From assembly GCF_044324875.1 (NCBI RefSeq), contig NZ_CP172185.1: 64,000 nt of DNA; one strand, given 5' to 3'. Numbering within the stretch: the stretch's first letter is position 1; each line of letters starts with the position of its first letter. Below the pieces are notes generated by a model. It was not told the DNA's origin. It ran no database searches and was given only the letters and a program-made list of their open reading frames with translations. This DNA is from Escherichia coli. Its GTDB lineage: Bacteria; Pseudomonadota; Gammaproteobacteria; Enterobacterales; Enterobacteriaceae. The translations under genes and the position numbers were made by a program. This document shows positions 1,687 to 33,185 of this stretch, piece after piece.

Positions 1687-2612
<926 letters not shown>

Positions 2613-9456: not shown

Positions 9457-9615
9457 GATTCCTCCGGTTCCTTAAAGGCAAATTTAGCGGCTGCTGTTGC
9501 TGCATTGATTAAGGGCGGCCGTAGCCGCCCTTAGTGCTTGATTACAGGACGAAACCTGCAATCTGTCAAGTAAACTCAACAAACTTCGGAATAAAAATCC
9601 CGAAGAGTCAGAGAA

Positions 9616-11289: not shown

Positions 11290-11399
11290 GTTTAATCTTC
11301 AGGTTTATATTTAACGTCCACCTGGCTCCATGCCGGATGGGGTTGTTTAACATACCCGCTGTCATTCCATTGCAACGGGGGTACTGCAAATTCGGTCGC

Positions 11400-12083: not shown

Positions 12084-12255
12084 CTTTATCTCCTTAAAAC
12101 AGGCGTACCGTTAACATAACCGCGCGCATTATACGCGCCGACGCCACAAATCGTTAACGTTGTGTGCAAAAACCAGTTTTGTCTGTATTCAGATGGGGAT
12201 TTATTGCGCAATTATAGCGGGCTGGCAGAAGACCAGCCCGAAAGATGACAATGAT

Positions 12256-13020: not shown

Positions 13021-13117
13021 GTGAATCATCCGTTGATTAATTATATATAAACATTATGTATCAATAAGTTACATTGATAATTAACGCTACCATTAATAAA
13101 AATACCCCACAAGGTCC

Positions 13118-13148
13118 GAAAAAAAACGCCGGCAATGTGCCGACGTCT
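13118..13148 (-). terminator. Rho-independent terminator after aroA
   Basis: Minus-strand hairpin (GACGTCGGCA / TGCCGGCGT) followed by T8. Confidence 0.6.
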
Positions 13149-13189
13149 TTGAAAAGAAAGGATTGTCTATGTTATCGCCCGTTATTCAT

Positions 13190-14473: not shown

Positions 14474-14493
14474 GAACTCAACTCTCTACAACA

Positions 14494-14524
14494 GAAATAA
14501 AAACCCCACAGGCTGACTGTGGGG
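14494..14524 (-). terminator. Intra-operon terminator/attenuator between serC and aroA
   Basis: Minus-strand hairpin CCCCACAG-N6-CTGTGGGG followed by TTTTTATTT. Confidence 0.6.
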
Positions 14525-14543
14525 ATTAAGCAAAATTTCGGCA

Positions 14544-15632: not shown

Positions 15633-15830
15633 TTCCCCTCACCACGTTGCGTTGCTATTAACCTGCGGTCAATCGATTGCGACCACAGGTAATACATTAT
15701 TCCTGTGGCTATCGGTTTTATCATTCAGTGACACACATCGCAATGAGTAAAACCGTTGAGGGCAAAAATGTGGCTTGCATCACACAAAAGAATCTCTCGG
15801 ATTATTAGCAAAAAGCCGATGTTTTTACTG

Positions 15831-16523
15831 TCACGTCACCCGTTTTGCCCGACTTGCCTTCGTCCATTCTGGATTTGCACAGCGCGGACATAATTGTTTT
15901 TCCCCCGCGTTCATATGAATGATTTCACTGCAACGAATGCAGGCATAGTCCGCCGACTCGGGTACCACTTTGTAACGCTGAGTACAGTCACTGGGTAAAA
16001 TAAGTAAGCCCGGTTTCACCTTGTCATCTTCAAAGAAATAGACACTGATTTGCCCGTTGGTTTCGAGAATCGCCAGACGTACTTGCCCCAACTGCTCTAC
16101 ACCGCGCAATCGTAGCTCCATAAAGAACTCAAATTCCGTCATGTTGGAGTTATTGAGTTTTGACCAGGCCAGCTCGCCATCTTCAATAATGACAACCGGC
16201 TTGCCTTCCAGAAGATCTTCCAGTTTTTCACTGTGCGCCATCAACCACATTACCAGGCGGTATAACAACGCCAGAGTAATAAAGACGATAAGTACCGGGA
16301 CCATCGGCACATCATCATAAAACGCCACATCTCCCGCCGCTGATCCCAGCGTCAGAATGATTAACACTTCAAAAAGCGACATCTGCCGCACACCGCGTCT
16401 TCCGGTCATTTTGAGGAACAAAAAAACCAGTACAAAGGTATAAAGACTACGTAGTGCCACTTCGCCAAGGAAATCAAAAGGCACTTTATCAAATGCCATA
16501 CGGTGGAGATCGAACGCCTTCAT
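15831..16523 (-). CDS. ycaP: DUF421-family membrane protein YcaP
   Basis: 230-aa ORF, conserved location divergent from ycaO. Confidence 0.88.
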   Translation of the reverse strand: MKAFDLHRMAFDKVPFDFLGEVALRSLYTFVLVFLFLKMTGRRGVRQMSLFEVLIILTLGSAAGDVAFYDDVPMVPVLIVFITLALLYRLVMWLMAHSEKLEDLLEGKPVVIIEDGELAWSKLNNSNMTEFEFFMELRLRGVEQLGQVRLAILETNGQISVYFFEDDKVKPGLLILPSDCTQRYKVVPESADYACIRCSEIIHMNAGEKQLCPRCANPEWTKASRAKRVT

Positions 16524-16652
16524 TTTTATGCTCTTATCGTGGTTTATCCACTAAAAGCATAGTCAACAGTTCATCGGCATGGCGGCGGTGATAGTGCCTT
16601 TGAGATAAAACCCGTATTATTGCGCGCTTTCCGTACGACTAAAGTGATTTTC

Positions 16653-18413
16653 ATGACGCAAACATTTATCCCCGGCAAAGATGCCGCACTGGAAGATTCC
16701 ATCGCTCGCTTCCAGCAAAAACTTTCAGACCTCGGCTTTCAGATTGAAGAGGCCTCCTGGCTGAATCCGGTGCCTAACGTCTGGTCTGTACATATTCGCG
16801 ACAAAGAGTGCGCACTGTGTTTTACCAACGGTAAAGGCGCAACCAAAAAAGCGGCGCTGGCTTCTGCACTCGGTGAATATTTCGAGCGTCTCTCAACCAA
16901 CTACTTTTTTGCTGATTTCTGGCTGGGCGAAACCATCGCCAACGGTCCGTTCGTGCATTATCCCAACGAAAAATGGTTCCCACTGAGCGAAAATGACGAT
17001 GTGCCAGAAGGGCTGCTCGATGACCGTCTGCGCGCATTTTACGATCCGGAGAATGAACTGGCCGGCAGTATGCTGATTGACCTGCAATCCGGTAACGAAG
17101 ATCGTGGTATTTGCGGTCTGCCGTTTACGCGTCAGTCTGATAATCAGACCGTTTATATTCCGATGAATATCATTGGTAACCTGTATGTTTCTAACGGTAT
17201 GTCCGCTGGCAATACCCGTAACGAAGCACGCGTTCAGGGGTTGTCCGAAGTTTTCGAACGCTACGTGAAAAACCGCATTATTGCTGAAAGCATCAGCTTG
17301 CCGGAAATCCCGGCAGACGTGCTGGCGCGTTACCCAGCGGTGGTTGAAGCCATCGAAACGCTGGAAGCAGAAGGTTTCCCAATCTTTGCTTATGATGGTT
17401 CGCTTGGCGGTCAGTATCCGGTGATTTGCGTGGTACTGTTCAATCCTGCTAACGGTACCTGCTTTGCCTCTTTCGGTGCGCATCCTGATTTTGGCGTAGC
17501 ACTGGAACGTACCGTGACCGAGCTGCTGCAAGGTCGTGGCCTGAAAGATTTGGATGTGTTTACTCCGCCAACCTTCGATGATGAAGAAGTTGCTGAACAT
17601 ACCAACCTCGAAACGCACTTTATCGATTCCAGCGGTTTAATCTCCTGGGACCTGTTCAAGCAGGATGCCGATTATCCGTTTGTGGACTGGAATTTCTCCG
17701 GCACTACGGAAGAAGAGTTTGCTACGCTGATGGCTATCTTCAACAAAGAAGATAAAGAAGTTTATATTGCCGATTACGAGCATCTGGGCGTTTATGCATG
17801 CCGAATTATCGTACCTGGCATGTCCGATATTTATCCGGCTGAAGATCTGTGGCTGGCGAATAACAGTATGGGCAGCCATTTACGTGAAACGATTCTTTCG
17901 TTACCAGGCAGCGAGTGGGAAAAAGAAGATTACCTGAACCTCATTGAGCAACTGGATGAAGAAGGTTTTGATGACTTTACCCGCGTGCGTGAGCTGTTGG
18001 GTCTGGCGACCGGGTCGGATAACGGTTGGTACACCCTGCGTATCGGAGAATTAAAAGCCATGCTGGCGCTGGCTGGTGGCGATCTGGAACAGGCTCTGGT
18101 CTGGACCGAATGGACGATGGAGTTTAACTCATCGGTATTCAGCCCGGAACGCGCCAACTATTATCGCTGCCTGCAAACGTTGTTATTACTGGCGCAGGAA
18201 GAAGATCGCCAGCCGCTGCAATATCTGAATGCGTTTGTTCGCATGTACGGCGCAGATGCCGTGGAAGCCGCCAGTGCGGCAATGAGCGGCGAAGCGGCGT
18301 TTTATGGCTTGCAACCAGTAGATAGCGATCTGCACGCGTTTGCTGCACATCAGTCGTTGTTGAAGGCCTACGAAAAGCTGCAGCGCGCCAAAGCAGCATT
18401 CTGGGCAAAATAA
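16653..18413 (+). CDS. ycaO: YcaO-domain protein (ribosomal S12 methylthiolation accessory factor)
   Basis: Start at ATG giving MTQTFIPGKD (586 aa); YcaO family. Confidence 0.92.
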   Translation: MTQTFIPGKDAALEDSIARFQQKLSDLGFQIEEASWLNPVPNVWSVHIRDKECALCFTNGKGATKKAALASALGEYFERLSTNYFFADFWLGETIANGPFVHYPNEKWFPLSENDDVPEGLLDDRLRAFYDPENELAGSMLIDLQSGNEDRGICGLPFTRQSDNQTVYIPMNIIGNLYVSNGMSAGNTRNEARVQGLSEVFERYVKNRIIAESISLPEIPADVLARYPAVVEAIETLEAEGFPIFAYDGSLGGQYPVICVVLFNPANGTCFASFGAHPDFGVALERTVTELLQGRGLKDLDVFTPPTFDDEEVAEHTNLETHFIDSSGLISWDLFKQDADYPFVDWNFSGTTEEEFATLMAIFNKEDKEVYIADYEHLGVYACRIIVPGMSDIYPAEDLWLANNSMGSHLRETILSLPGSEWEKEDYLNLIEQLDEEGFDDFTRVRELLGLATGSDNGWYTLRIGELKAMLALAGGDLEQALVWTEWTMEFNSSVFSPERANYYRCLQTLLLLAQEEDRQPLQYLNAFVRMYGADAVEAASAAMSGEAAFYGLQPVDSDLHAFAAHQSLLKAYEKLQRAKAAFWAK

Positions 18414-18744
18414 AATCAAATAGCCTACGCAATGTAGGCTTAATGATTCGTCTGAGTTATATTACGGGGCGTTTTTTTAATGCCCCGCTTTACATATATT
18501 TGCATTAATAAAATAATTGTAATTATAAAGTTAAATATCGGTAATTTATATTTAATAAATACGATCGATATTGTTACTTTATTCGCCTGATGCTCCCTTT
18601 TAATTAACTGTTTTAGCGGAGGATGCGGAAAAAATTCAACTCATTTGTTAATTTTTAAAATTTATTTTTATTTGGATAATCAAATATTTACTCCGTATTT
18701 GCATAAAAACCATGCGAGTTACGGGCCTATAAGCCAGGCGAGAT

Positions 18745-18758
18745 ATGATCTATATCAA
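18745..18758 (+). promoter_or_regulatory. FNR-type half-site dyad in focA-pflB promoter region
   Basis: ATGAT-N4-ATCAA close to TTGAT-N4-ATCAA consensus, followed by TATAAT-like hexamer; exact promoter assignment not resolved. Confidence 0.5.
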
Positions 18759-18818
18759 TTTCTCATCTATAATGCTTTGTTAGTATCTCGTCGCCGACTT
18801 AATAAAGAGAGAGTTAGT

Positions 18819-19676
18819 GTGAAAGCTGACAACCCTTTTGATCTTTTACTTCCTGCAGCAATGGCCAAAGTGGCCGAAGAGGCAGGTGTCTATAAAGCAA
18901 CGAAACATCCGCTTAAGACTTTCTATCTGGCGATTACCGCCGGTGTTTTCATCTCAATCGCATTCGTCTTCTATATCACAGCAACCACTGGCACAGGAAC
19001 AATGCCCTTCGGCATGGCAAAACTGGTTGGCGGTATTTGCTTCTCTCTGGGGCTGATTCTTTGTGTTGTCTGCGGAGCCGATCTCTTTACTTCCACAGTG
19101 TTGATTGTTGTTGCTAAGGCGAGTGGGCGCATCACCTGGGGTCAGTTAGCGAAAAACTGGCTAAATGTCTATTTTGGCAACCTGGTCGGCGCACTGCTGT
19201 TTGTACTTTTAATGTGGCTTTCCGGCGAGTATATGACCGCAAATGGTCAATGGGGACTAAACGTCCTACAAACTGCCGACCACAAAGTGCACCATACTTT
19301 TATTGAGGCCGTCTGCCTTGGTATCCTGGCAAACCTGATGGTATGTCTGGCAGTATGGATGAGTTATTCTGGCCGCAGCCTGATGGATAAAGCGTTCATT
19401 ATGGTGCTACCGGTCGCGATGTTTGTTGCCAGCGGTTTTGAGCACAGTATCGCAAACATGTTTATGATCCCGATGGGTATTGTAATCCGCGACTTCGCAT
19501 CTCCGGAATTCTGGACCGCTGTCGGTTCTGCACCGGAAAATTTTTCTCACCTGACCGTGATGAACTTCATCACTGATAACCTGATTCCGGTTACGATCGG
19601 TAATATTATCGGCGGTGGTTTGTTGGTTGGGTTGACATACTGGGTCATTTACCTGCGTGAAAACGATCACCATTAA
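18819..19676 (+). CDS. focA: Formate channel FocA
   Basis: GTG start giving VKADNPFDLL (285 aa); ORF track extension from upstream TTG is not the real start. Confidence 0.94.
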   Translation: MKADNPFDLLLPAAMAKVAEEAGVYKATKHPLKTFYLAITAGVFISIAFVFYITATTGTGTMPFGMAKLVGGICFSLGLILCVVCGADLFTSTVLIVVAKASGRITWGQLAKNWLNVYFGNLVGALLFVLLMWLSGEYMTANGQWGLNVLQTADHKVHHTFIEAVCLGILANLMVCLAVWMSYSGRSLMDKAFIMVLPVAMFVASGFEHSIANMFMIPMGIVIRDFASPEFWTAVGSAPENFSHLTVMNFITDNLIPVTIGNIIGGGLLVGLTYWVIYLRENDHH

Positions 19677-19730
19677 TGGTTGTCGAAGTACGCAGTAAAT
19701 AAAAAATCCACTTAAGAAGGTAGGTGTTAC

Positions 19731-22013
19731 ATGTCCGAGCTTAATGAAAAGTTAGCCACAGCCTGGGAAGGTTTTACCAAAGGTGACTGGCAGAATGAAG
19801 TAAACGTCCGTGACTTCATTCAGAAAAACTACACTCCGTACGAGGGTGACGAGTCCTTCCTGGCTGGCGCTACTGAAGCGACCACCACCCTGTGGGACAA
19901 AGTAATGGAAGGCGTTAAACTGGAAAACCGCACTCACGCGCCAGTTGACTTTGACACCGCTGTTGCTTCCACCATCACCTCTCACGACGCTGGCTACATC
20001 AACAAAGCGTTGGAAAAAGTTGTTGGTCTGCAGACTGAAGCTCCGCTGAAACGTGCTCTTATCCCGTTCGGTGGTATCAAAATGATCGAAGGTTCCTGCA
20101 AAGCGTACAACCGCGAACTGGACCCGATGATCAAAAAAATCTTCACTGAATACCGTAAAACTCACAACCAGGGCGTGTTCGACGTTTACACTCCGGACAT
20201 CCTGCGTTGCCGTAAATCCGGTGTTCTGACCGGTCTGCCAGATGCTTATGGCCGTGGTCGTATCATCGGTGACTACCGTCGCGTTGCGCTGTACGGTATC
20301 GACTACCTGATGAAAGACAAACTTGCACAGTTCACCTCTCTGCAGGCTGATCTGGAAAACGGCGTAAACCTGGAACAGACTATCCGTCTGCGCGAAGAAA
20401 TCGCTGAACAGCACCGCGCTCTGGGTCAGATGAAAGAAATGGCTGCGAAATACGGCTACGACATCTCTGGTCCGGCTACCAACGCTCAGGAAGCTATCCA
20501 GTGGACTTACTTTGGCTACCTGGCTGCTGTTAAGTCTCAGAACGGTGCTGCAATGTCCTTCGGTCGTACCTCCACCTTCCTGGATGTGTACATCGAACGT
20601 GACCTGAAAGCTGGCAAGATCACCGAACAAGAAGCGCAGGAAATGGTTGACCACCTGGTCATGAAACTGCGTATGGTTCGCTTCCTGCGTACTCCGGAAT
20701 ACGATGAACTGTTCTCTGGCGACCCGATCTGGGCAACCGAATCTATCGGTGGTATGGGCCTCGACGGTCGTACCCTGGTTACCAAAAACAGCTTCCGTTT
20801 CCTGAACACCCTGTACACCATGGGTCCGTCTCCGGAACCGAACATGACCATTCTGTGGTCTGAAAAACTGCCGCTGAACTTCAAGAAATTCGCCGCTAAA
20901 GTGTCCATCGACACCTCTTCTCTGCAGTATGAGAACGATGACCTGATGCGTCCGGACTTCAACAACGATGACTACGCTATCGCTTGCTGCGTAAGCCCGA
21001 TGATCGTTGGTAAACAAATGCAGTTCTTCGGTGCGCGTGCAAACCTGGCGAAAACCATGCTGTACGCAATCAACGGTGGCGTTGACGAAAAACTGAAAAT
21101 GCAGGTTGGTCCGAAGTCTGAGCCGATCAAAGGCGATCTCCTGAACTACGATGAAGTGATGGAGCGCATGGATCACTTCATGGACTGGCTGGCTAAACAG
21201 TACATCACTGCACTGAACATCATCCACTACATGCACGACAAGTACAGCTACGAAGCCTCTCTGATGGCGCTGCACGACCGTGACGTTATCCGCACCATGG
21301 CGTGTGGTATCGCTGGTCTGTCCGTTGCTGCTGACTCCCTGTCTGCAATCAAATATGCGAAAGTTAAACCGATTCGTGACGAAGACGGTCTGGCTATCGA
21401 CTTCGAAATCGAAGGCGAATACCCGCAGTTTGGTAACAACGATCCGCGTGTAGATGACCTGGCTGTTGACCTGGTAGAACGTTTCATGAAGAAAATTCAG
21501 AAACTGCACACCTACCGTGACGCTATCCCGACTCAGTCTGTTCTGACCATCACTTCTAACGTTGTGTATGGTAAGAAAACGGGTAACACCCCAGACGGTC
21601 GTCGTGCTGGCGCGCCGTTCGGACCGGGTGCTAACCCGATGCACGGTCGTGACCAGAAAGGTGCAGTAGCCTCTCTGACTTCCGTTGCTAAACTGCCGTT
21701 TGCTTACGCTAAAGATGGTATCTCCTACACCTTCTCTATCGTTCCGAACGCACTGGGTAAAGACGACGAAGTTCGTAAGACCAACCTGGCTGGTCTGATG
21801 GATGGTTACTTCCACCACGAAGCGTCCATCGAAGGTGGTCAGCACCTGAACGTTAACGTGATGAACCGTGAAATGCTGCTCGACGCGATGGAAAACCCGG
21901 AAAAATATCCGCAGCTGACCATCCGTGTATCTGGCTACGCAGTACGTTTCAACTCGCTGACTAAAGAACAGCAGCAGGACGTTATTACTCGTACCTTCAC
22001 TCAATCTATGTAA
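19731..22013 (+). CDS. pflB: Pyruvate formate-lyase (glycyl radical enzyme)
   Basis: 760-aa ORF with glycyl-radical motif RVSGY near C-terminus. Confidence 0.98.
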
Positions 22014-22055
22014 TTAGATTTGACTGAAATCGTACAGTAAAAAGCGTACAATAAA

Positions 22056-22081
22056 GGCTCCACGAAAGTGGGGCCTTTTTT
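22056..22081 (+). terminator. Rho-independent terminator after pflB
   Basis: GGCTCCAC-GAAA-GTGGGGCC followed by T-run. Confidence 0.7.
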
Positions 22082-22204
22082 AGCACGAGAGCCTTTTTTG
22101 TCAGCTATCTATACTTTAAGGTGACTGCCAAAACAGACTCGACGTAGCCTTCGAGCTGCGCACCAACACGGCCTCAGATGGGCCACATCTGGAGAAACAC
22201 CGCA

Positions 22205-22945
22205 ATGTCAGTTATTGGTCGCATTCACTCCTTTGAATCCTGTGGAACCGTAGACGGCCCGGGTATTCGCTTTATCACCTTTTTCCAGGGCTGCCTGATG
22301 CGCTGCCTGTATTGTCATAACCGCGACACCTGGGACACGCATGGCGGTAAAGAAGTTACCGTTGAAGATTTAATGAAAGAGGTGGTGACCTATCGCCACT
22401 TTATGAACGCTTCCGGCGGCGGCGTTACCGCATCCGGCGGTGAAGCAATCCTGCAAGCTGAGTTTGTTCGTGACTGGTTCCGCGCCTGCAAAAAAGAAGG
22501 CATTCATACCTGTCTGGACACCAACGGTTTTGTTCGTCGTTACGATCCGGTGATTGATGAACTGCTGGAAGTAACCGACCTGGTAATGCTCGATCTCAAA
22601 CAGATGAACGACGAGATCCACCAAAATCTGGTTGGAGTTTCAAACCACCGCACGCTGGAGTTCGCCAAATATCTGGCGAACAAAAATGTGAAGGTGTGGA
22701 TCCGCTACGTTGTTGTCCCAGGCTGGTCTGACGATGACGATTCAGCGCATCGCCTCGGTGAATTTACCCGTGATATGGGCAACGTTGAGAAAATCGAGCT
22801 TCTCCCCTACCACGAACTGGGCAAACACAAATGGGTGGCGATGGGTGAAGAATACAAACTTGATGGTGTTAAACCACCGAAGAAAGAGACCATGGAACGC
22901 GTGAAAGGCATTCTTGAGCAGTACGGTCATAAGGTAATGTTCTAA
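22205..22945 (+). CDS. pflA: Pyruvate formate-lyase activating enzyme (radical SAM)
   Basis: Start at [14 protein letters not shown] (246 aa); CxxxCxxC radical SAM motif (CLMRCLYC). Confidence 0.96.
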
Positions 22946-22955
22946 TTTCCCCGTA

Positions 22956-22988
22956 AAGCGGCAACTTTTTTGAGTTGCCGCTTTTTTA
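22956..22988 (+). terminator. Rho-independent terminator after pflA
   Basis: AAGCGGCAACT...AGTTGCCGCTT followed by TTTTTTATT. Confidence 0.7.
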
Positions 22989-23154
22989 TTCCGCGCTGCA
23001 TAAATAATTCAGAGCTCTATTTCTAACGCCCTTACAGCACAGCTTCCAAATGTATTACCCAAACCGCCAGTATATGTCCTGCGGCTTGCGCGCATTTCTC
23101 GATTATGTAAAAACGGGTCAGATCTGCCAGAGTCAGCGTCACCGGCCACAATAA

Positions 23155-24585
23155 TTATTTGCCATTCGCTTTACGCGCCAGCAGCGGGAATATCAGCCCT
23201 AATCCTACCAGCACAAACGGCGTTGCAACATTCAGCGCCAACTGGAATGTCCACTCTGCGGTGAAGGCTTCCATTTTCGGGAAAATACCAGTCAGGCAGG
23301 CAAAAGCGGTAAAGGCAAAACACCAAATTCCGACGGTCATTGCCAGCGGCTTATTACGAATAAAGACATATTCTGGTTTATATTTCTGCGCCAGGCGAAC
23401 AACTGCAATAAATGCAACAAATACCCATAAATAACGCAGCGGCATCACTACCGAGTTAAGATTCAACAGCCATTTATAGAGATTGTTCATATCACCAATG
23501 CCGAGAGTCGGCAGCATTATCAGGATCGCCACCAGCACCAGGGTCAGAAAATAGCCATTAACGGGCGTACCAGAAGCGTTGGTACGACATAAACTGGCTG
23601 GAATATATTTGCTGTCAGCATCGCCTAATAACACTTTAAGCGGCGCATCAATCGAGAATACCAGCGCAGCTACTTGTCCCAGGGTATTCGCAATGGCATA
23701 AATCACCATTAAAGTATTACCCATGTTGTAATACTCGCCCAGCTTCTGAAAGGCGTAATACTGACCGTTAGTCATTAAGTCATCCGGGATATTACGCGAG
23801 TCAAACATCATCCCCATCGCCAGTGAGCCCAGAATGGCACAAACCGCAACCATCACCGCCAGGCATAACATCCCTTTTGGAAATTCTTTTCCTGGGTTGC
23901 GCGTTTGATTAACGTAAGGAGAAATCTTCTCTGCTCCGCCAACCGCGAAAACCAGCATTGAAATAGTGGTAATGTAGGTAAAGTCGATATGAGGAATGAA
24001 CGTTTCCCAGGTAATGTTTGTGGTCGCAATATGCACTTCAGTAATTGCAGGCGCGGTTACCGCCATCGCCACATACAGGAGCGACATAACAAACATCGCA
24101 ATCCCTGCCACAGAACCGACGATTTTCAGCGATTTCATACCGCGTGAAGCAACCCACATAAAGAAGATAAACAGCACCAGCGTTAACCCCTGTAACGCTA
24201 CGACTGAATATTCTTTGATTAACGAACCGTCGCCTTTCATCGCCCAACCGAGCGCAATCAGTATTGCCTGGGGTTTTTGTGCCAGATAGGGAATATGCAC
24301 TACCCAGTAGGTCCACGCGGCGAGGTAAGCCAGTCCGGGTCCCATCGTGTGTTTAATCCAGGTACTGACCCCGCCCTTCCCATCTTTGAAGGTCGAGCCT
24401 AACTGACCAACAATTAGCGCATAAGGTGTGAAATAGAGCGCAAAGATAAACACCCATGAAAAAACAACCACCAGCCCCTGGTTGGCGTAGTTATTAACAA
24501 CGTTGCCAAAACCCCAGACAGTGATAAAAGACATCAGCGCAATGTTGTACCATCGCAGCTGTTTTTCCTGAACATTCCCAGCCAT
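23155..24585 (-). CDS. ycaM: APC-family putative transporter YcaM
   Basis: Start set at ATG giving MAGNVQEKQLRW (476 aa); polytopic membrane protein. Confidence 0.88.
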   Translation of the reverse strand: MAGNVQEKQLRWYNIALMSFITVWGFGNVVNNYANQGLVVVFSWVFIFALYFTPYALIVGQLGSTFKDGKGGVSTWIKHTMGPGLAYLAAWTYWVVHIPYLAQKPQAILIALGWAMKGDGSLIKEYSVVALQGLTLVLFIFFMWVASRGMKSLKIVGSVAGIAMFVMSLLYVAMAVTAPAITEVHIATTNITWETFIPHIDFTYITTISMLVFAVGGAEKISPYVNQTRNPGKEFPKGMLCLAVMVAVCAILGSLAMGMMFDSRNIPDDLMTNGQYYAFQKLGEYYNMGNTLMVIYAIANTLGQVAALVFSIDAPLKVLLGDADSKYIPASLCRTNASGTPVNGYFLTLVLVAILIMLPTLGIGDMNNLYKWLLNLNSVVMPLRYLWVFVAFIAVVRLAQKYKPEYVFIRNKPLAMTVGIWCFAFTAFACLTGIFPKMEAFTAEWTFQLALNVATPFVLVGLGLIFPLLARKANGK

Positions 24586-24794
24586 AGACAAATCCTTCGC
24601 CAAAATTAAAGGGGCATCTGTAAAACGAGGGATTATGCGCGGCAAATAAGAAGTGCGGAAATAGCGAAATGCAAAATTATAACCTGCTGCACATTTTATT
24701 TTGAAACGAATAAAATTTTGAAAAAAGCAAGTCAGAGAGAAGAAACAGAAAAGCAGAGTGTGAAACAGTAAGTTCACACTCTGCGTTAATTCAT

Positions 24795-25943
24795 TTACAC
24801 GTGAGCAACGGGTTTCGGCGTATGACCGGCGTTGCGAAGCAGCATCAGCAAATAGATAAACGATACGCTGGCGATCATGATAAACAATAAATTATCGGAG
24901 AAATTCTGCATTAGCATAGCGGTAAATGACGGGCCAAGCAGACTTCCCACGGTATAGCTCAACAGTAAGGCCTGGTTCATCGCCACCAGTTGATGATGTT
25001 CAACTTTCTCGCAAGCCCATGCCATCGCCACCGGATATAGCGTAAAGCCAGCGGCACCGAGGATGAATAACGCTGGGGCCATCGCCGCCTGGCTAAGCAT
25101 CGCGATACTGCCGAGAATGACGACAAAGACCTGAACACGCAACACCAGCAGTCGACCAAACTTATCCGCCAGACGTCCAATCGGCCATTGTCCAAGGATA
25201 CCCGCACTGACCAGTACCGCCATCCAGAAACCAATGCTGGCATTGCTCACCCCTTTGTGATTGAGGAACAGCGGCATCAGGCCATATAGAGATCCCAGAA
25301 CGATTCCTGAGATAATGCAGCCATTCACGCCAAGCCGCGCCTGACGGAGTTTTAGCATTGACGTAATTGACGTCGAATCATGGTTTTCAGCCTGCTGATT
25401 CAGCACACGCGTAAACAACAGCGGTAAGATCCCTGCCAACGTCAAACCTGTAACCCACGGCAATACGGACATCAGCTCGGTTGAAACTTTGCTGACCAGT
25501 AACTGGCCTAAAAACGTTCCCACGTAATAAACCATCATATACGCAGCAAGCAAACGCCCACGGTTACGTGACGTCCCACTGCACATCAGCGCGCTCTCAA
25601 CAACCACCCAAATCATGGCACAGCCGACGCCGGCGACAAAACGCCAAGCCAACCAGCTCCAGAATCCAATCATCAGGCCAAGGCCGGCACAGCCAGCGGC
25701 AAAAATGAAGGAGGCCAGATAATAGCTGCGGTTAAAGCCAATGCGCTTAATGACATACCCTGTCAGCAATGTACCGACCAGGTTGCCGGTAAAATAGGAT
25801 GAGCTGACAACGCCTACCTGCCATGTGGACATGTGTTCCTGGGCGAGCCAAAGCGGCACGAGTGTATTTAACACTGCGATCGCCAGAGTCAACAAAAGCA
25901 GGCCAGACAGCAAAAGCATGACAGGCCGGGTATACGTGGACAT
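24795..25943 (-). CDS. ycaD: MFS transporter YcaD
   Basis: 382-aa ORF, 12-TM MFS-type sequence. Confidence 0.92.
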
Positions 25944-26257
25944 GAATTAAAACCGTGAGGAAGTTCAAATTTCATGCGCATCATGCCACCGCCAAAAACA
26001 TTGTCAATGGGTGAAAATACGCGCATATCGCAGCGGAGGTATTATCGATTTATATTACTCATTCATAACGCTAATGCTGGAGAGACGATTAATCTCATCT
26101 GATTGTTTTTATTGATCTAACACAAATTTCATACGCTTCGTTCAGTCGAAAAATTTCATGGTCACAGCAAACTCATATTTCCCGTCTATGCTTTCAGAGC
26201 AATGCATCGCGTCTGACCGATTTCAGACGTACCACTGACTCTCGAAAGGAGAAGAGG

Positions 26258-26884
26258 ATGACCAAACCGTATGTTCGTCTTGATAAAAATGATGCTGCCG
26301 TTTTGCTTGTTGATCACCAGGCTGGTTTACTTTCCCTTGTACGGGATATCGAACCCGATAAGTTTAAAAATAACGTGCTGGCGCTGGGCGACCTGGCTAA
26401 GTATTTCAACTTACCTACTATTCTTACCACCAGTTTTGAAACCGGTCCTAACGGCCCATTAGTTCCAGAACTGAAAGCACAGTTCCCCGATGCACCTTAC
26501 ATTGCTCGCCCGGGCAATATTAACGCCTGGGATAACGAAGATTTTGTAAAAGCTGTCAAAGCGACAGGTAAAAAACAGTTAATTATTGCCGGTGTGGTAA
26601 CCGAAGTTTGCGTGGCATTCCCGGCGCTTTCAGCCATTGAAGAAGGGTTTGATGTATTTGTCGTGACTGATGCATCAGGGACCTTTAATGAAATTACCCG
26701 GCATTCGGCGTGGGATCGCATGTCGCAAGCTGGTGCGCAATTGATGACATGGTTCGGCGTGGCTTGCGAGCTGCACCGTGACTGGCGTAATGATATTGAA
26801 GGACTGGCGACGTTGTTCTCTAACCACATTCCTGATTATCGTAATTTGATGACCAGTTATGACACATTAACGAAGCAGAAATAA
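26258..26884 (+). CDS. ycaC: Isochorismatase-family hydrolase YcaC
   Basis: 208-aa ORF MTKPYVRLDKNDAAVLLVDHQ. Confidence 0.94.
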   Translation: MTKPYVRLDKNDAAVLLVDHQAGLLSLVRDIEPDKFKNNVLALGDLAKYFNLPTILTTSFETGPNGPLVPELKAQFPDAPYIARPGNINAWDNEDFVKAVKATGKKQLIIAGVVTEVCVAFPALSAIEEGFDVFVVTDASGTFNEITRHSAWDRMSQAGAQLMTWFGVACELHRDWRNDIEGLATLFSNHIPDYRNLMTSYDTLTKQK

Positions 26885-26889
26885 AAGAG

Positions 26890-26911
26890 AACCGGGGTCG
26901 AAACCCCGGTT
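26890..26911. terminator. Bidirectional hairpin between convergent ycaC and dmsC
   Basis: AACCGGGGT-CGAA-ACCCCGGTT perfect inverted repeat. Confidence 0.6.
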
Positions 26912-26919
26912 GTTACTGA

Positions 26920-27783
26920 TTAGCTTGCGACGGCCATCCCCACGGTCATATGCAAACCATAGAATACGCCGCGACCGATTAATTCTCCTGCCAGAAGCAG
27001 AATGAATGAGACGGATAGTAGCGGAACCGCAGGCTGATAACCTTTTAGCTGTGGTGCAATCCACAAACACAGGGCAACAGCCAAAAGCACGATCCGCCAG
27101 GACATCAGCGCACCATAGTCCGGCACCAGCGCTGCGGCCTGCTGCACAGAACTATGAATAGTCGCCAGCTCTGCGCCCTGCATCACTGACATCACGCCAC
27201 TCACTACCAGGGCCAGTACAGAAATGGCTGGCAGCAGACGCATCGCCCAGCCATCGACGCCAGCCAGACTCAGCAACAGGTAACCCAGTAACGGGCCGCC
27301 CATGAACATCGTCAGGAAGAAGCCCATCGGTGTCCAGATGCTGTACCAGGTCGGAACGGTATCGATGCTGTTATAGACACGCACCATCATCCAGACAAAG
27401 ACTACGCCAAGAACCATCGTCACCACCAGCCACAGCGTACGCAATGCCGGTGACAGCTTGTTCAGCATTGCCAGTAACCAGCCGATGCCACCAACAGCAA
27501 AAAAGATCGAACCGCTGGCGATTTCGTTACTGAGTGCTGAAGCCCCTACCCGGTTGAGCGAGTTAAAGGCGCGCATCGGTGAACCAAGATGAAGCATAGA
27601 GGCGATAAAGCCAATGCCCATCAGCACCCATAAACCAAACATGCAGGCAATAACACGCTGCTGGGCTTCTGCTCGCAGGTCGCCTTTGAGCAGCGCCAAA
27701 GCCAGAACGATAAAACCACCCGCTACACATTGCCCGAAGACCGTGAAGATCATCAGCGGCCATTCATGCCATCCACTTCCCAT
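26920..27783 (-). CDS. dmsC: DMSO reductase membrane anchor subunit
   Basis: Start at ATG (MGSGWHEWPLMIF) with AAGGAGG SD; 287 aa. Confidence 0.94.
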   Translation of the reverse strand: MGSGWHEWPLMIFTVFGQCVAGGFIVLALALLKGDLRAEAQQRVIACMFGLWVLMGIGFIASMLHLGSPMRAFNSLNRVGASALSNEIASGSIFFAVGGIGWLLAMLNKLSPALRTLWLVVTMVLGVVFVWMMVRVYNSIDTVPTWYSIWTPMGFFLTMFMGGPLLGYLLLSLAGVDGWAMRLLPAISVLALVVSGVMSVMQGAELATIHSSVQQAAALVPDYGALMSWRIVLLAVALCLWIAPQLKGYQPAVPLLSVSFILLLAGELIGRGVFYGLHMTVGMAVAS

Positions 27784-27784
27784 C

Positions 27785-28402
27785 TCACACCTCCTTCGGG
27801 TTTGCCAGATAGCCAGTGGTATCCCCAGTCGGGCGGCTGTTGGCATTGGGTTTGATCACAATATTCGGTTTGGTAAAGTGAGCTCGCGGCAACGGCGCAA
27901 CGGCCGCCAGATCGCCATGTTTTTTACGCAGCTCGTCGATAGGGCCGAAATCCAGCGCCCGCAGCGGGCAGGATTCTACGCAGATCGGCTTTTTCCCTTC
28001 CGCAACACGGTCATAACAACCATCGCATTTGGTCATATGGCCTTTCGTTTCGTTATATTGCGGTGCGCCATACGGGCAAGCCATATGGCAGTAGCGGCAG
28101 CCAATGCACACATCTTCATCGACCACAACAAAACCATCTTCACGTTTATGCATCGCACCGCTCGGGCAGACTTTAGTACAAGCCGGATCTTCGCAGTGGT
28201 TACATGAAATCGACAGATAGTAGGCAAACACGTTCTGATGCCAGACACCGTTATCTTCCTGCCAGTCACCGCCAGCATATTCATAAATGCGGCGGAAGCT
28301 GACTTCCGGCGTCAGATCTTTATAGTCTTTACAGGCCAGCTCGCAGGTTTTGCAACCGGTGCAACGGCTGGAATCAATAAAAAATCCATACTGGGTTGTC
28401 AT
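27785..28402 (-). CDS. dmsB: DMSO reductase iron-sulfur subunit
   Basis: 205-aa ORF with four Cys clusters (CxxCxxCxxxCP). Confidence 0.97.
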   Translation of the reverse strand: MTTQYGFFIDSSRCTGCKTCELACKDYKDLTPEVSFRRIYEYAGGDWQEDNGVWHQNVFAYYLSISCNHCEDPACTKVCPSGAMHKREDGFVVVDEDVCIGCRYCHMACPYGAPQYNETKGHMTKCDGCYDRVAEGKKPICVESCPLRALDFGPIDELRKKHGDLAAVAPLPRAHFTKPNIVIKPNANSRPTGDTTGYLANPKEV

Positions 28403-28412
28403 CGGTTACTCC

Positions 28413-30857
28413 TTACACCTTTTCAACCTGAACAAGGTTTGTATGTGACGGATTCCCCTTAGCGAGAGGAGACGGACGTTGAGTGGTCAGTACATTGATA
28501 CAACCGCCCTTATCGACACGTTTTGCATCCGGGTCATACCAGGCACCTTCACCCAGTGCGACCACACCCGGCATCATTCGTGGCGTCACTTTCGCCTCAA
28601 TATGAACCTCACCACGATCGTTAAAGATCCTGACTTTATCGCCGTTGTTGATACCGCGTTTTTGCGCATCAAGCGGGTTGATCCACATTTCCTGACGGCA
28701 AGCCGCTTTCAGCACATCAACGTTGCCGTAAGTTGAGTGAACGCGAGATTTATAGTGGAAACCCGTAAGCTGCAGCGGATATTGTTTGTTCAGCGGATCC
28801 TGATAACTTTCAAAGCCCGGCGTATAGATCGGCAGTGGATCGATCACATCGCCTTCTGGCAATTCCCAAGTCGCGGCAATGTCAGCCAGCGCCTGCGAAT
28901 AAATCTCAATTTTACCCGATGGCGTGGTCAGTGGATTTGCCTGAGGATCTTCACGGAAAGCTTTATAAGCAACGTGGTGCCCTTGTGGGTCGCGCTTTTT
29001 AAAGATCCCCTGCTTGCGGAACTCTTCAAACGTTGGCAGTTCAGGAATCGCTTCCCGCGACTGGGCATACAGATGCCGCATCCACTCTTCCTGTGTACGG
29101 CCTTCAGTAAACTGTTGCTCAACGCCAAGACGTTTTGCCAGTTCGCTGGTCATTTCATAGATGGTCTTACATTCAAAGCGCGGTTTAATCACCTGATCGT
29201 TGAAAATCACGTAAGACATATTCCCGCAGGATGCATCCAGTGCAAAGTCCATCTGTTCGGAAGCGGTGCAGTCAGGCAGCAGGATGTCAGCATATTTCGC
29301 TGATGAGGTCATGTGGCAGTCGATAACCACAATCAGCTCGCACTTCTTATCATCCTGAAGGATTTCATGGGTACGGTTGATTTCAGAATGCTGGTTAATC
29401 AGGCAGTTACCGGCATAGTTCCAGATCATTTTGATCGGCACATCCAGCTTATCTTTCCCGCGCACACCATCACGCAGCGCTGTCATTTCCGGGCCACGTT
29501 CAATGGCATCGGTCCACATAAACATCGAAATGCTGGTCTGGATCGGGTTTTCGAGGGTCGGCATACGGACAAACGGTAAGCTGTATGAACCTTCACGCGC
29601 GCCGCTGTTGCCTCCGTTAATACCAACGTTACCGGTCAGAATCGCCAGCATCGAGATAGCACGGGTTGCGATTTCACCGTTAGCGTGACGCTGCGGGCCC
29701 CATCCCTGGCTGATAAACGCCGGTTTGGTACTACCGATTTCACGAGCCAATTTGATGATTTTGTCTGCCGGAACACCGGTGATTTGCGAGGCCCATTCCG
29801 GCGTTTTAGCCACGCCATCTGGCCCTTCACCCAGAATATAAGCTTTATAGTGACCATTTTTCGGCGCACTGGCTGGCAGTGTTTTCTCGTCGTAGCCAAC
29901 GCAATATTTATCGAGGAATGCCTGATCCACCAGGTTTTCGGTGATCATGACATACGCCAGACCGTTAACCAGTGCGGCATCTGTTCCTGGACGAATAGGG
30001 ATCCACTCATCTTCGCGCCCGGCACCGGTGTCGGTATAGCGCGGATCGATGATGATCATGCGGGCATTAGATTTCTGACGCGCCTGTTCAAGATAGTAAG
30101 TCACCCCACCGCCACTCATTCGCGTTTCGCCAGGGTTATTACCAAACAGCACTACCAGCTTACTGTTTTCGATATCCGACGGGCTGTTACCATCTGCCCA
30201 GCCGCCATAGGTATAGTTCAAACCTTCCGCAATTTGCGCGGAAGAGTAGTCACCGTAATGGTTCAGATAACCGCCGCAGCAGTTCATCAGGCGAGCGACC
30301 AGGGTATTTCCCGGCGGCCAGGAGCGGGTCATGGTGCCGCCCAGCGTACCGGTACCATAGTTCAGATAGATAGACTCGTTGCCGTACTCTTTGATCAGGC
30401 GCTGCATATTGGTCGCGATGATGTCGTAGGCTTCTTCCCAGCTAATGCGCTCGAATTTGCCTTCACCGCGCGCCCCGACTCGTTTCATCGGATATTTCAG
30501 GCGGTCCGGATTGTAGACACGGCGACGCATGGAACGCCCACGCAGACAGGCGCGCACCTGGTGCAGGCCGTCATAGTTGTCATCGCCGGTATTATCCGTT
30601 TCAACATATTTAATTTCACCGTCCACAACGTGCATACGTAGCGGGCAGCGACTACCACAGTTAACTGTACAGGCGCTCCAGATAACCTTTTCGTCTGATT
30701 TTGCCGGAAGGGCACTATCAACAGCGTGCGCAATCCGACTAAAAGGTAATGTTAACGCGCTGCTTGCCATTGCCAGGCCGCCGATCGCTGTCGTTTTTAC
30801 CAAACCACGGCGACTCACCTCAGCAGCCAATACCGCATCAGGGATTTTCGTTTTCAT
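28413..30857 (-). CDS. dmsA: DMSO reductase molybdopterin catalytic subunit (Tat signal)
   Basis: 814-aa ORF with twin-arginine leader (SRRGLVKTTAIGGLAMA). Confidence 0.97.
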   Translation of the reverse strand: MKTKIPDAVLAAEVSRRGLVKTTAIGGLAMASSALTLPFSRIAHAVDSALPAKSDEKVIWSACTVNCGSRCPLRMHVVDGEIKYVETDNTGDDNYDGLHQVRACLRGRSMRRRVYNPDRLKYPMKRVGARGEGKFERISWEEAYDIIATNMQRLIKEYGNESIYLNYGTGTLGGTMTRSWPPGNTLVARLMNCCGGYLNHYGDYSSAQIAEGLNYTYGGWADGNSPSDIENSKLVVLFGNNPGETRMSGGGVTYYLEQARQKSNARMIIIDPRYTDTGAGREDEWIPIRPGTDAALVNGLAYVMITENLVDQAFLDKYCVGYDEKTLPASAPKNGHYKAYILGEGPDGVAKTPEWASQITGVPADKIIKLAREIGSTKPAFISQGWGPQRHANGEIATRAISMLAILTGNVGINGGNSGAREGSYSLPFVRMPTLENPIQTSISMFMWTDAIERGPEMTALRDGVRGKDKLDVPIKMIWNYAGNCLINQHSEINRTHEILQDDKKCELIVVIDCHMTSSAKYADILLPDCTASEQMDFALDASCGNMSYVIFNDQVIKPRFECKTIYEMTSELAKRLGVEQQFTEGRTQEEWMRHLYAQSREAIPELPTFEEFRKQGIFKKRDPQGHHVAYKAFREDPQANPLTTPSGKIEIYSQALADIAATWELPEGDVIDPLPIYTPGFESYQDPLNKQYPLQLTGFHYKSRVHSTYGNVDVLKAACRQEMWINPLDAQKRGINNGDKVRIFNDRGEVHIEAKVTPRMMPGVVALGEGAWYDPDAKRVDKGGCINVLTTQRPSPLAKGNPSHTNLVQVEKV

Positions 30858-31027
30858 AATGGCTCACTCAAGCTTGCTCACGATTGATTCCAGTAACAAA
30901 CCGTATTGTGTAATTATTTCTATAGCAGTTCGCTATATAGGCTTGTATACATCGAATAATTTGAAAATCAAAGAGATAGGTAGATTTTCACTCGAAAGTA
31001 GTATTACGTGTAAGTGAGGAGTAATTA

Positions 31028-31041
31028 TTGTTCGGTATCAA
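31028..31041 (-). promoter_or_regulatory. FNR binding site of dmsA promoter
   Basis: Minus strand reads TTGATACCGAACAA (TTGAT-N4-AACAA) about 170 nt upstream of dmsA ATG. Confidence 0.7.
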
Positions 31042-31153
31042 AGGGAGACAAAAAAAGCGCCCGCAGGAGATTTAACGGTACTTACTCCTCTTGCTGATTT
31101 CCTTATTTTTCAATAAGTAAACAAAAACAAGGGGAGCAAATTATCACAAATAA

Positions 31154-32158
31154 TTACTGGTCGATGGACAGTTTATGGACACTTTCAGCCAGCGGATTAA
31201 AGCTGATCGCATCCTGTAAAAAGTCCGGTGAAAAATGCGCATACGTCATCGTTTGCTGAATCGTGGCGTGACCCAGGATCCTCTGCAACGTGACGATGTT
31301 CCCGCCGTTCATCATGAAATGCGTGGCGAACGTGTGCCGCATGACATGCGTGGCCTGCCCTTTGGGTAAGTCGGGCTTCACCTCCTGAAGGATCTCCCTG
31401 AAACTGAGATAATCAACCTGATATAACAGGCCGGTCCGGCGGGTTTTAATTAACGGCACAACGGAATCAGCTACAGGAACCGAGCGCGATTTCCCGTTCT
31501 TTGTGTTAAAGAACGTCACCCTGTTACCCACGATGTGTTCCCCGCGAAGCGTTGACGCCTCTTTCCATCTGGCCCCGGTCGAAAGGCACAGAATGGCAAT
31601 GCGTCGTGCATCACCCTCAAGCCGTTTCAGAAGGCGATCAATCTCGTCATCTGAAAGAAAGGCCATTTCTGTATTCTGAACCTTGAGTTTACGTATTCCG
31701 CGCACAGGGTTTTCGTTATGATAAACCTCCGCGTCAATTAACAACGAAAACATCGCAGATAAGGCGCACAGGTCGCGATTGATACTGGACGGCATCAGTC
31801 CCGCCTGCAACTTATCCGAGCGATACTCAATCACGAATTTTCGTGTCATCTGGCTGGCGCGCGGGTCCCCCATTTCACGTATCACCTTCTCCAGTCTGGT
31901 TCTGTAGGTATCACCATATGCCTGATTACGACCATCAAGCATCCACCACACCTCAATCAGTTCTGATAACCGCCGTTGATCGGCGGGCCTTGCCTGCCAC
32001 GGGTTATTGTGGAAATTCTGAAGAACGTATCTTTCGAATTCCTGCGCCTTTGATTTCAGGGTGAAAATCTTACGAATCCGCCTTCCTCCCGCCCCCTGAG
32101 GCCTTACATCAACCTGATAACGTCCGTCTTTGAGTTGCTTAATCGACATGATCAGCAC
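31154..32158 (-). CDS. int: Phage tyrosine integrase (P2 Int-like)
   Basis: 334 aa; conserved ILCLSTGARW...ATHVMRHTFATHFMMNGG...LQRILGH...YAHF (R, H-x-x-R, Y catalytic residues). Confidence 0.93.
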   Translation of the reverse strand: MLIMSIKQLKDGRYQVDVRPQGAGGRRIRKIFTLKSKAQEFERYVLQNFHNNPWQARPADQRRLSELIEVWWMLDGRNQAYGDTYRTRLEKVIREMGDPRASQMTRKFVIEYRSDKLQAGLMPSSINRDLCALSAMFSLLIDAEVYHNENPVRGIRKLKVQNTEMAFLSDDEIDRLLKRLEGDARRIAILCLSTGARWKEASTLRGEHIVGNRVTFFNTKNGKSRSVPVADSVVPLIKTRRTGLLYQVDYLSFREILQEVKPDLPKGQATHVMRHTFATHFMMNGGNIVTLQRILGHATIQQTMTYAHFSPDFLQDAISFNPLAESVHKLSIDQ

Positions 32159-32218
32159 CTCCGACGGATAAACCTGTTAACCCCTGCTTACTGAACGCCG
32201 CCCGTTCAATATACAGCG

Positions 32219-32560
32219 TCAGCCAGCATTGCGGCCTGATTGGGGTGATTTTTGGGTATTGCGGGTTGAAACCTGATCGTCCTCCGACTGCGTGGAGCCA
32301 TCAAGAGAGAGAGCCGGGGCGATCTGACCGGCAACAGGTAGCGTCTTATCTTTGATTAGCCAGAACATATATTTTTCAAACCGATCCACTTGAAGGACGG
32401 CCTCAACAATCTTTGCTCTGGCGATCTTTTGCCCTGACTCATAATTCCTGACAGTTGCCAGAGATAACCCTGTAATATCAGCAAATTGCTTTTGAGTTAG
32501 CCCTTCCGTCTTGCGTATCAAACGCAACTTTTTCGCATAGTCTATTGACAAGATACTCAT
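32219..32560 (-). CDS. Phage immunity repressor (P2 C-like, XRE-type HTH)
   Basis: 113 aa; HTH LTQKQFADITGLSLATVRNYESG; position between int and divergent early operon. Confidence 0.8.
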   Translation of the reverse strand: MSILSIDYAKKLRLIRKTEGLTQKQFADITGLSLATVRNYESGQKIARAKIVEAVLQVDRFEKYMFWLIKDKTLPVAGQIAPALSLDGSTQSEDDQVSTRNTQKSPQSGRNAG

Positions 32561-32663
32561 TTGGGGATTAATCTCCTACAAAAGATAACCGTACGATTAT
32601 CTTTACAAGTCATCAAAAATCATCAAAAGGCGCAACAAGCGCACCAATGCAAGAGGATAACAA

Positions 32664-33185
32664 ATGCGGGAGATTATTGCCGACAAAGAGTTATCTGGCG
32701 CTCAACCGGTTCAGGATGATGGCGCGGACAATGAATTCATTGAAGCTGCCAACGACAACGAACACCTGGAAACCAAAACCAGACCGTCCTACAAAAAGGG
32801 CGCAACCCTACGACTGGACGGCCCAGTCGCAGGACTTGTGTCACTGGAAAAAGGGGCTGCCTATCTGGGGGTAACAAAATCTGCGCTACGCGCCGCCATT
32901 CAGCGCGGGCAGATGCCGGGTCACAAAACGCGCTCAAATCCCGAAGATGAAAAGTCAGACGGTACATGGTGGTTTAACGCCAAAGCCTGGGACGAACTAG
33001 CCGACGAACTACTGGAGTGCGAACCGCCAGAGTGGCACAACTGGAAAAGCTACTGGACGTACGACCGCAAGAAAAGAAAGTTTTCACCGGCAAACAAGGA
33101 GGACTGCCAGACCGTTAAAGGTAAGCAGGTTTACTCCCCCAGAGTTTCAAAACTGGAGCAACTCAAAAACAACCAGCCCGGCTAA
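32664..33185 (+). CDS. Cox/excisionase-like early protein (173 aa)
   Basis: AGAGGA SD 7 nt upstream; central HTH-like AYLGVTKSALRAAIQRGQMP; first gene of rightward early operon. Confidence 0.55.
   Translation: MREIIADKELSGAQPVQDDGADNEFIEAANDNEHLETKTRPSYKKGATLRLDGPVAGLVSLEKGAAYLGVTKSALRAAIQRGQMPGHKTRSNPEDEKSDGTWWFNAKAWDELADELLECEPPEWHNWKSYWTYDRKKRKFSPANKEDCQTVKGKQVYSPRVSKLEQLKNNQPG

Follow-up and report, generated by a model that had tools for sequence, protein, structure and literature searches.

A palindromic putative repressor operator and phased repeats in the lysis/lysogeny switch of a P2-like prophage of Escherichia coli

[quoted passage not shown]

The C repressors of the phages P2, P2 Hy dis and WPhi bind two direct half-sites of 8-10 bp, which have centre-to-centre distances of 22, 26 and 34 bp, respectively, and are placed around the -10 or the -35 element of the early promoter Pe (PMC1904268). 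The crystal structure of P2 C is a symmetric dimer like those of proteins binding palindromes, a result its authors called surprising (PMC2995052; PMC4752584), and the binding of a symmetric C dimer to non-palindromic direct repeats is a puzzle in the P2 field (PMC2995052; PMC4752584). Direct repeats in helical phase, located in the switch as well as at att, are the binding sites of the Cox and Apl proteins (PMC3936717; PMC7498355), and WPhi Cox binds within the Pe-Pc region, to a direct repeat (PMC5009727). The start of the lysogenic promoter Pc in WPhi leads to an overlap of 82 nt between the Pe and Pc transcripts (PMC1904263). In the annotation of the P2 record, the Pe -35 TTGACA lies over the start of C with the operators O1 and O2 on either side of the -10, Pc is found 18-43 bp before the cox ATG, and the Cox site is located between the attP core and the 3' end of int. 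Immunity classes are defined by a C identity of at least 95% (PMC3448106). Nilsson et al. 2011 (PMC3448106) tentatively placed PhiECO5, a prophage of E. coli UTI89, in immunity class IX, its operators being unmapped, and also noted a group of larger Cox proteins.

In the current study, we have analysed a stretch of 64,000 nucleotides of E. coli DNA (hereafter, the window), in which a P2-like (Peduoviridae) prophage sits between dmsA and serS and has its lysis/lysogeny switch at positions 32545-32683. We identify the region as a P2-type immunity switch because it is flanked by a repressor of the P2 C family and by a Cox-family protein, which bears out the preliminary description of this DNA, where the interval 32561-32663, the core of this switch, had been read as a candidate immunity switch region. 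The C immunity repressor gene (32219..32560, minus strand), supported by its ORF and a Pfam HTH_3 domain, encodes a protein of 113 aa that matches the PDB entries 2L49/2XCJ ('C protein') over residues 8-92 with an E-value of 3.7e-15, and shares 49% identity with the C of WPhi and 34% with that of P2. The cox gene (32664..33185, plus strand) encodes a long-form member of the Cox family of 173 aa, named 'Cox family DNA-binding protein' in RefSeq, with a Pfam Phage_Cox domain at residues 56-129 (E 1.5e-8); a sequence comparison of this protein with the PDB detected no match. Its Shine-Dalgarno sequence AGAGGA, as read from the sequence, is found at 32652..32657 (plus strand), 6 nt 5' of the ATG at 32664. 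Downstream of C in the lysogenic operon lies a tyrosine integrase gene (31154..32158, minus strand; Pfam Int_N and Phage_integrase), which shares its strand with C; the element is flanked by dmsA. C and cox are divergent and separated by a spacer of 103 bp (32561-32663). This is the layout of a P2-type switch, with a small C-family HTH repressor (~100 aa, here 113 aa), a divergent Cox-family gene ~100-115 bp from C, and int downstream of C. A two-domain CI of ~190 aa, as in the 186-type switch, is not what the locus encodes, as the repressor has 113 aa and its best relative of solved structure is P2 C.

At least 26 of 5,426 complete E. coli genomes carry the region with an identity of 99% or more, and its DNA is 80% identical to that of the induced phages vB_EcoM-569R5 and 705R2. 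Only three of 50,697 phage records, two of them being these induced phages, contain a C with 88% identity; every other C in these records is less than 60% identical, and that of phage P88 proper is a different one (38%). None of the 50,697 phage records yielded a C of an immunity-tested phage with at least 95% identity, in a comparison to which the classes IV-VII (Karlsson 2006) do not belong. The switch is an uncharacterised immunity type within the ordinary P2-type kind. The contig of relative L066 (C 60% identical) carries a second C-like ORF of 94 aa (MHRRFFMNSQPIDYAPRLAAIRKAEG...) directly downstream of C (L020, 1916-2200), and two proteins of 195 aa from E. coli/Citrobacter (P0021 and P0038) are ~50% identical to the repressor over 73% of its length and have an extra region, with P0021 also matching Pfam PF15731.

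In a search for the other end of the prophage, no shared core of at least 13 nt was found within the window, which stops inside the tail genes. A search of Rfam gave no match in the switch, and its sole match was the host sRNA STnc130 at the att site (RF02084, 125.8 bits; 30948-31082, plus strand). The host/prophage junction, at ~31067, is located inside the 3' terminator of STnc130, and the right half of the terminator stem is altered in the window (GCGCCCGCAGGAGATTT, compared to GCGCCCGCAGGCGCTTT in 569R5), so that integration may change the termination of this sRNA.

The early promoter and the phased 10-mers

The best plus-strand promoter match consists of a -35 element TTGACA at 32545..32550, inside codons 4-6 of C, and a -10 element TAATCT at 32569..32574, detected in a PWM scan and separated from the former by a spacer of 18 bp. 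With a score of 12.2, a level that is reached 0.29 times per kb per strand, it is the best promoter match in the region, and its start, which would be that of Pe, is predicted at ~32581. To compare this arrangement across phages, 19 close and then 80 broader relatives were taken from viral contigs (245 relatives found), giving 69 distinct switch sequences. A TTGAC-type hexamer is present at the place of the Pe -35 in nearly all relatives, and the -10 is kept as TAACCT or TATCCT with the same 18-bp spacing in all relatives scanned for promoters; hexamers of the TAACCT/TATCCT/TATCAT type are seen at this place in the sequences of other relatives. The complement of the Pe -10 region holds the Shine-Dalgarno sequence GGAG of C (32576..32573).

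Downstream of the predicted Pe start, the 9-mer TCATCAAAA is found at 32610-32618 and again at 32620-32628, that is, with a period of 10 bp from start to start, which leaves a gap of 1 bp between the copies. The preliminary description had reported this tandem repeat correctly, and it is statistically rare: the window has just two loci at which a 9-mer recurs exactly after 10 bp, with 0.35 expected. The other locus is ACCAGAAACA, present twice at 34408-34427 in an intergenic part of the early region, just 5' of a TTGACC hexamer and of the ORF 34475-34768. The TCATCAAAA pair forms boxes 2 and 3 of an array of five phased 10-mers, CTTTACAAGT, CATCAAAAAT, CATCAAAAGG, CGCAACAAGC and GCACCAATGC (32601..32650, plus strand), with a core ACAAR, which we consider putative Cox boxes. 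Alignment of 27 distinct relatives in a register of 10 bp, counted from the start of cox, shows five phased 10-mers with the ACAAR core.

Across lineages, the array travels with the cox allele and not with the C allele. In phages with an 84-88% identical C and the same putative C half-sites, the TCATCAAAA pair is replaced by CCAAAACAAACCATCACAA. On the other hand, phages of the UTI89/PhiECO5 type, with a C only 64-65% identical and a different operator, have a Cox of the same clade (70-75% identical) and the same boxes. The ACAAR array is replaced by CATAAGCCGA repeats in relative L041 (C 72%, Cox 50% identical) and by AAATAACCGC repeats in L066 (Cox 42% identical), and further lineages carry repeats phased by 10-11 bp at the array position, such as CCTAGAACG/CTTAAAGCGC, which fit the P2 cox-box consensus TTAAA(G/C)NC(A/C).

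Phased ACAAR arrays are seen both in the switch and at the att arm, where three boxes, AAAAACAAGG, GGAGCAAATT and ATCACAAATA (31123..31152, plus strand), adjoin the int stop codon (31154) and form a putative Cox site for excision. A PWM was built from 36 distinct switch boxes, and three phased boxes were scored on both strands of the whole window. The switch, the source of the training set, ranked first, a host site at 25523 second, and the att array third of 128,000 positions, its score being reached or bettered at only 6 of these. The array is conserved as CCAAAACAGG, GGGAACAAAT and TAACACAAAT in 569R5 and in a similar form in UTI89, with differing adjacent bases, and ranks third in the 569R5 and second in the UTI89 locus; since the three att arms are homologous, this amounts to one observation with conservation and not to three independent ones. 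A lineage-specific att test in a fourth lineage, that of the Salmonella relative L106, gave only weak matches and was weakly positive. The att-arm array could also be ordinary A-rich intergenic DNA, for which we informally estimate a p of roughly 0.005. Besides, 569R5 and UTI89 have a strong array of phased ACAAR boxes, CAAAAAAAATACCACAAATCAATACAAGG, at yet a third place, a divergent spacer among the early genes (L001 ~5780-5812, plus strand; L105 ~1168, minus strand). This array has no equivalent in the window and may mark another Cox-controlled promoter.

Based on this distribution, we regard Cox boxes as the most likely identity of the phased 10-mers, the TCATCAAAA pair among them. A different origin would be A-rich repeats made by slippage and acting through DNA curvature, or sites for IHF or Fis that tune Pe and Pc. 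The boxes are indeed short, A-rich and loose in sequence, with A-tracts recurring every 10 bp, and a slippage or conversion event is suggested by the one extra array unit in L038 and by box 2 of the window, which resembles a copy of box 3. However, neither curvature nor a host factor would explain that the sequence of the array switches with the cox allele across lineages and that the ACAAR core is found again at the att arm, at the very place bound by P2 Cox. The Cox/Apl repeats of P2, WPhi and 186, moreover, are all located in this part of the switch, and we consider this alternative explanation unlikely.

The palindrome, its putative half-sites and the C repressor

The intergenic region also contains the palindrome mentioned in the preliminary description, which proved longer than reported there. 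The segment GATAACCGTACGATTATC (32584-32601) is self-complementary at 16 of its 18 positions, with a single mismatched pair (C32589/A32596), and the symmetry extends to a near-palindrome of 24 bp with 11 of 12 pairs (32581..32604), the two halves of which are AAAGATAACCGT and ACGATTATCTTT. No other 24-bp palindrome in the 64-kb window reaches 11 of 12 pairs, and first-order Markov simulations gave a mean of 0.16 of this quality per 64 kb. Its arms contain two putative half-sites, H2 (32582-32589, plus strand) and H3 (32603..32596, minus strand). A third putative half-site, H1 (CAAGATACT, 32549..32557, plus strand; core AAGATA at 32550-32555), is a direct copy of the left arm of the palindrome and is located 32 bp upstream of it, inside the C gene. 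The resulting direct repeat of AAGATA (32550-32555 and 32582-32587) has its copies on either side of TAATCT. By sequence, the locus has the two direct half-sites, two to three helical turns apart and flanking the Pe -10 or -35, that are typical of C operators, and the third, inverted copy is extra. The comparison with the P2 operators made in the preliminary description holds for this AAGATA repeat, which is P2/WPhi-like in flanking the Pe -10 at a distance of 32 bp, and not for TCATCAAAA.

The relatives share a common plan, with TTGACA a few codons into C, followed by H1, a -10 of the form TAAYCT or TATCCT at 18 bp from the -35, and the palindrome with H2 and H3. All members of the close group have the same arms, AAAGATA--, and vary freely in the central 4-8 bp; in L023 the 24-bp palindrome is perfect. 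Where the arms do change, both change together, as in L039/L040 (GATACTCG/CGAGTATC), in L066 (GGTATCA/TGATACC) and in group B (TTCACC/GGTGAA). The arm sequence also goes with the recognition helix of the repressor: the half-site AAGATAAC is found with the helix LSLATVRNYESGQK, TTCACC/GGTGAA with VSVGTIGNYESGYK, AAGGTATC with LSVSTIKGYETGQR, and GGTTCTT/AAGAACC with VALGTIKKYETGHQ. Because the arms change with the repressor type across relatives, we consider the palindrome to be very probably the repressor operator that sets the immunity specificity, and the arms AAGATAAC and H1 together to be the likely operators of C. Of the immunity operators proposed in the preliminary description, the palindrome is retained, and the TCATCAAAA repeat, which is not tied to C, is not. 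A palindromic operator, if this assignment is right, would be a modest but real departure from the description of C-family repressors as proteins binding direct repeats.

The assignment of H1 is based on its co-variation with the palindrome. Across 15 lineage representatives, the left arm agrees with the H1 region of its own lineage at 0.78 and with that of other lineages at 0.60, which none of 20,000 permutations matched (p<5e-5). Codons 2-4 of C (SIL, VIL, VNM, GTL) vary along with H1, from which we argue that the DNA rather than the peptide is the constrained object. In the window, H1 agrees with H2 at only 6-7 of 8-11 positions, and in L039/L040 H1 did not follow the change of H2 and H3. 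The C half-site is locally enriched around the switch, including GATAAC-like motifs. Two of these, at 32654-61 (AGGATAAC) and 32690-97 (GTTATCTG), were considered as extra C sites and rejected, as they are unchanged in group B, where the half-site is TTCACC.

An inverted repeat at this place might also act as a nucleic-acid hairpin, either a stem-loop at the 5' end of the Pe mRNA or a fold within the Pc leader, that would make the transcript more stable or attenuate it. This would be in line with the compensatory changes of the arms, which preserve pairing, with the C/A mismatch, which would become a G-U pair in the minus-strand RNA, and with the location of the palindrome, right where the Pe transcript is predicted to begin. 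However, a hairpin has no need for the unpaired third copy H1, which co-varies with the arms, nor for an arm sequence tied to the recognition helix of the repressor. Moreover, the minimum free energy fold of the 90-nt Pe leader (32581-32670; z -1.96) is without the palindrome hairpin and pairs the right arm with the region of the cox Shine-Dalgarno sequence. A role of the palindrome as a hairpin is, based on these points, quite improbable.

The preliminary description had instead proposed the two TCATCAAAA copies as the direct-repeat operator of C, equivalent to O1 and O2 of P2. C-family repressors do bind direct repeats (PMC1904268; PMC2995052), and an exact 9-mer pair is statistically unusual, but the proposal also implied that the repeat would be conserved among phages sharing this repressor, and the pair is absent, with CCAAAACAAACCATCACAA in its place, from phages that have an 84-88% identical C and the same AAGATAAC half-sites. 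Conversely, phages that differ in C and operator have kept the array around the pair. Furthermore, the 10-bp period of the pair differs from the 22, 26 and 34 bp of the known C operators, and the pair is found 29-47 bp past the predicted start of Pe instead of flanking the -10 or the -35, so that we regard this proposal as very improbable. Finally, binding of the palindrome by Cox, or by both repressors in a lambda-like manner, is scarcely credible even though the palindrome borders the array and shares 4 bp of its right arm with box 1 (CTTTACAAGT), since the palindrome follows the C type, and group B, which shares the Cox clade and the boxes, has a TTCACC palindrome.

The lysogenic promoter, the proposed switch and the known systems

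The position of Pc is uncertain. It is most likely an extended -10 TGtTATCCT on the minus strand (32662..32654), antisense to the cox Shine-Dalgarno sequence, with TCGGCA at 32683..32678 as its -35 and a predicted start at ~32647. This position is the commonest among the minus-strand candidates of distinct relatives (48 of ~110 candidates over ~60 loci), although the conservation of TATCCT there is confounded by the role of its complement as ribosome-binding site of cox. Lineages without the TG at this -10 have better -35 hexamers, and the published Pc start of WPhi (82-nt Pe overlap, 60 nt from O2) maps to the homologous place. An alternative Pc with a geometry like that of P2 Pc (32619..32647, minus strand) would consist of TTGGTG (32647..42), a 17-bp spacer and GATGAT (32624..19). 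It scores 6.9 here and up to 10.4 in L037, has a predicted start at ~32612, and would put the TCATCAAAA copies at the -10 and the start of Pc. Both leading candidates would be convergent with Pe, with overlaps of ~67 or ~31 nt, and one conserved candidate would be divergent. This last one, TTGTAA-15-TATCTT, with a predicted start at ~32575, overlaps the palindrome and is a minor possibility, which we have demoted because the C mRNA would start at its own Shine-Dalgarno sequence and be almost leaderless. The minus-strand match with the best PWM score (10.1), TTGATG-17-TACGGT, was rejected as Pc, its -10 being located in the variable centre of the palindrome and absent from relatives. The preliminary description had placed the operators and both promoters within 32561-32663, which is right in part; H1, the Pe -35 and the likely Pc -35 fall outside this interval, inside the coding sequences of C and cox.

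Two further features of the DNA around these promoters were observed. Family-wide (L023-L102), the Shine-Dalgarno sequence of C gives, as its reverse complement, the Pe -10 (TAATCT/TATCCT; 32569-32576), and that of cox, AGGATA, gives the favoured Pc -10 TATCCT (32652-32662), so that the -10 of each promoter would double as the ribosome-binding site of the opposing gene. In addition, a terminator-like hairpin on the minus strand (32645..32629; GGTGCGCTTGTTGCGCC followed by TTTTGATGAT) overlaps boxes 4-5, and has no conserved stem in L066.

Considering these assignments, we propose a model of the switch, to which we give a probability of about 0.7 and in which we infer the protein-DNA contacts, the transcription starts and the direction of regulation. 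Pe would drive cox and the early genes rightward from ~32581, and the C repressor would occupy three copies of the half-site AAGATAAC and thereby shut Pe, with H1 between the Pe -35 and -10 and the H2/H3 palindrome over the Pe start. The direct repeats H1 and H2, 32 bp or three helical turns apart, would flank the -10 as in P2 and WPhi, and H3 would be the symmetric partner that allows a C dimer to occupy a true palindrome. Together, H1-H3 would set the immunity specificity. Cox would polymerise on the five 10-mers at 32601-50 and block the leftward Pc and, at high concentration, Pe too, and the three-box array at 31123-52 would serve Cox in excision. With Pc at 32662..32654, the transcripts of Pe and Pc would overlap by ~67 nt.

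This model predicts an 8-bp half-site behind superinfection immunity, and, if the assignments hold, the region defines an uncharacterised immunity type of P2-like prophages. A close homologue of P2 C with a natural palindromic operator would offer a convenient structural comparison for the puzzle posed by the P2 C dimer. The separation of C and its operator from cox and its boxes would also imply, provided that the assignments are right, that new immunity types can arise by recombination inside a spacer of 100 bp. More tentatively, and with slightly less than even confidence, we suggest that a large clade of the C family reads a true palindrome plus an auxiliary direct half-site, that this symmetric mode is ancestral, that the direct repeats of P2 and WPhi are arms of two degenerate palindromes, and that the switch is built of freely recombining modules, C with its operator and cox with its boxes. 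If true, these phages would be a natural system for how a symmetric C dimer reads asymmetric DNA, and the junction between the two modules would lie within ~10 bp.

Among the known systems, 186 resembles the window in the reading proposed here for Cox, as Apl is both an excisionase and a lytic repressor that binds direct repeats one helical turn apart, between the convergent promoters pR and pL and at att (PMC7498355). It differs in its 192-aa CI, which has inverted-repeat operators, and in the presence of cII, whereas the repressor of the window is a homologue of P2 C. P2 itself shares the int-C-cox order, a Pe -35 TTGACA that overlaps the beginning of C, operators flanking the Pe -10, and two places for Cox sites, namely the switch and the stretch from the att core to the 3' end of int, the operators and Cox sites of the window being putative. 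Its C is only 34% identical, however, and its half-sites GTTTAGAT are 22 bp apart and lack an inverted copy. In addition, its cox box TTAAA(G/C)NC(A/C) occurs in mixed orientations, in contrast to ACAAR in a single orientation (PMC3936717), and the Pc of P2 has a TATAAT 38-43 bp before cox.

WPhi has the closest characterised repressor (C 49% identical), and its direct half-sites also flank the Pe -10 at about three helical turns (34 bp, compared to 32 bp in the window). Its Cox repeats are likewise found between O2 and cox, but consist of two 12-nt repeats for a Cox of 90 aa, and not of five 10-bp-phased boxes for a Cox of 173 aa. The half-site of WPhi is ATTGGTGAC instead of AAGATAAC, and its operator has been described without an inverted half-site. 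In the WPhi sequence (L104, 590-619), we observed a 9-bp inverted repeat, TCAAAAGGT-N12-ACCTTTTGA, which encloses the published O2 and is not described in the WPhi literature examined; a related AAAGGT...ACCTTT is conserved in L097-L102. A WPhi reporter construct without the right arm of this inverted repeat was still repressed, which indicates that an inverted copy can be dispensable and calls for caution regarding the role of H3.

PhiECO5 of E. coli UTI89 shares with the window the serS-dmsA integration site, a Cox of the long clade (~74% identity) and, at both the switch and att, an array of phased ACAAR boxes. It differs in its C, which is 64% identical and has another recognition helix, and in its operator palindrome, TTCTTCACCA-ca-TGGTGAAGAA, and, given this different palindrome, PhiECO5 should be heteroimmune to the prophage of the window.
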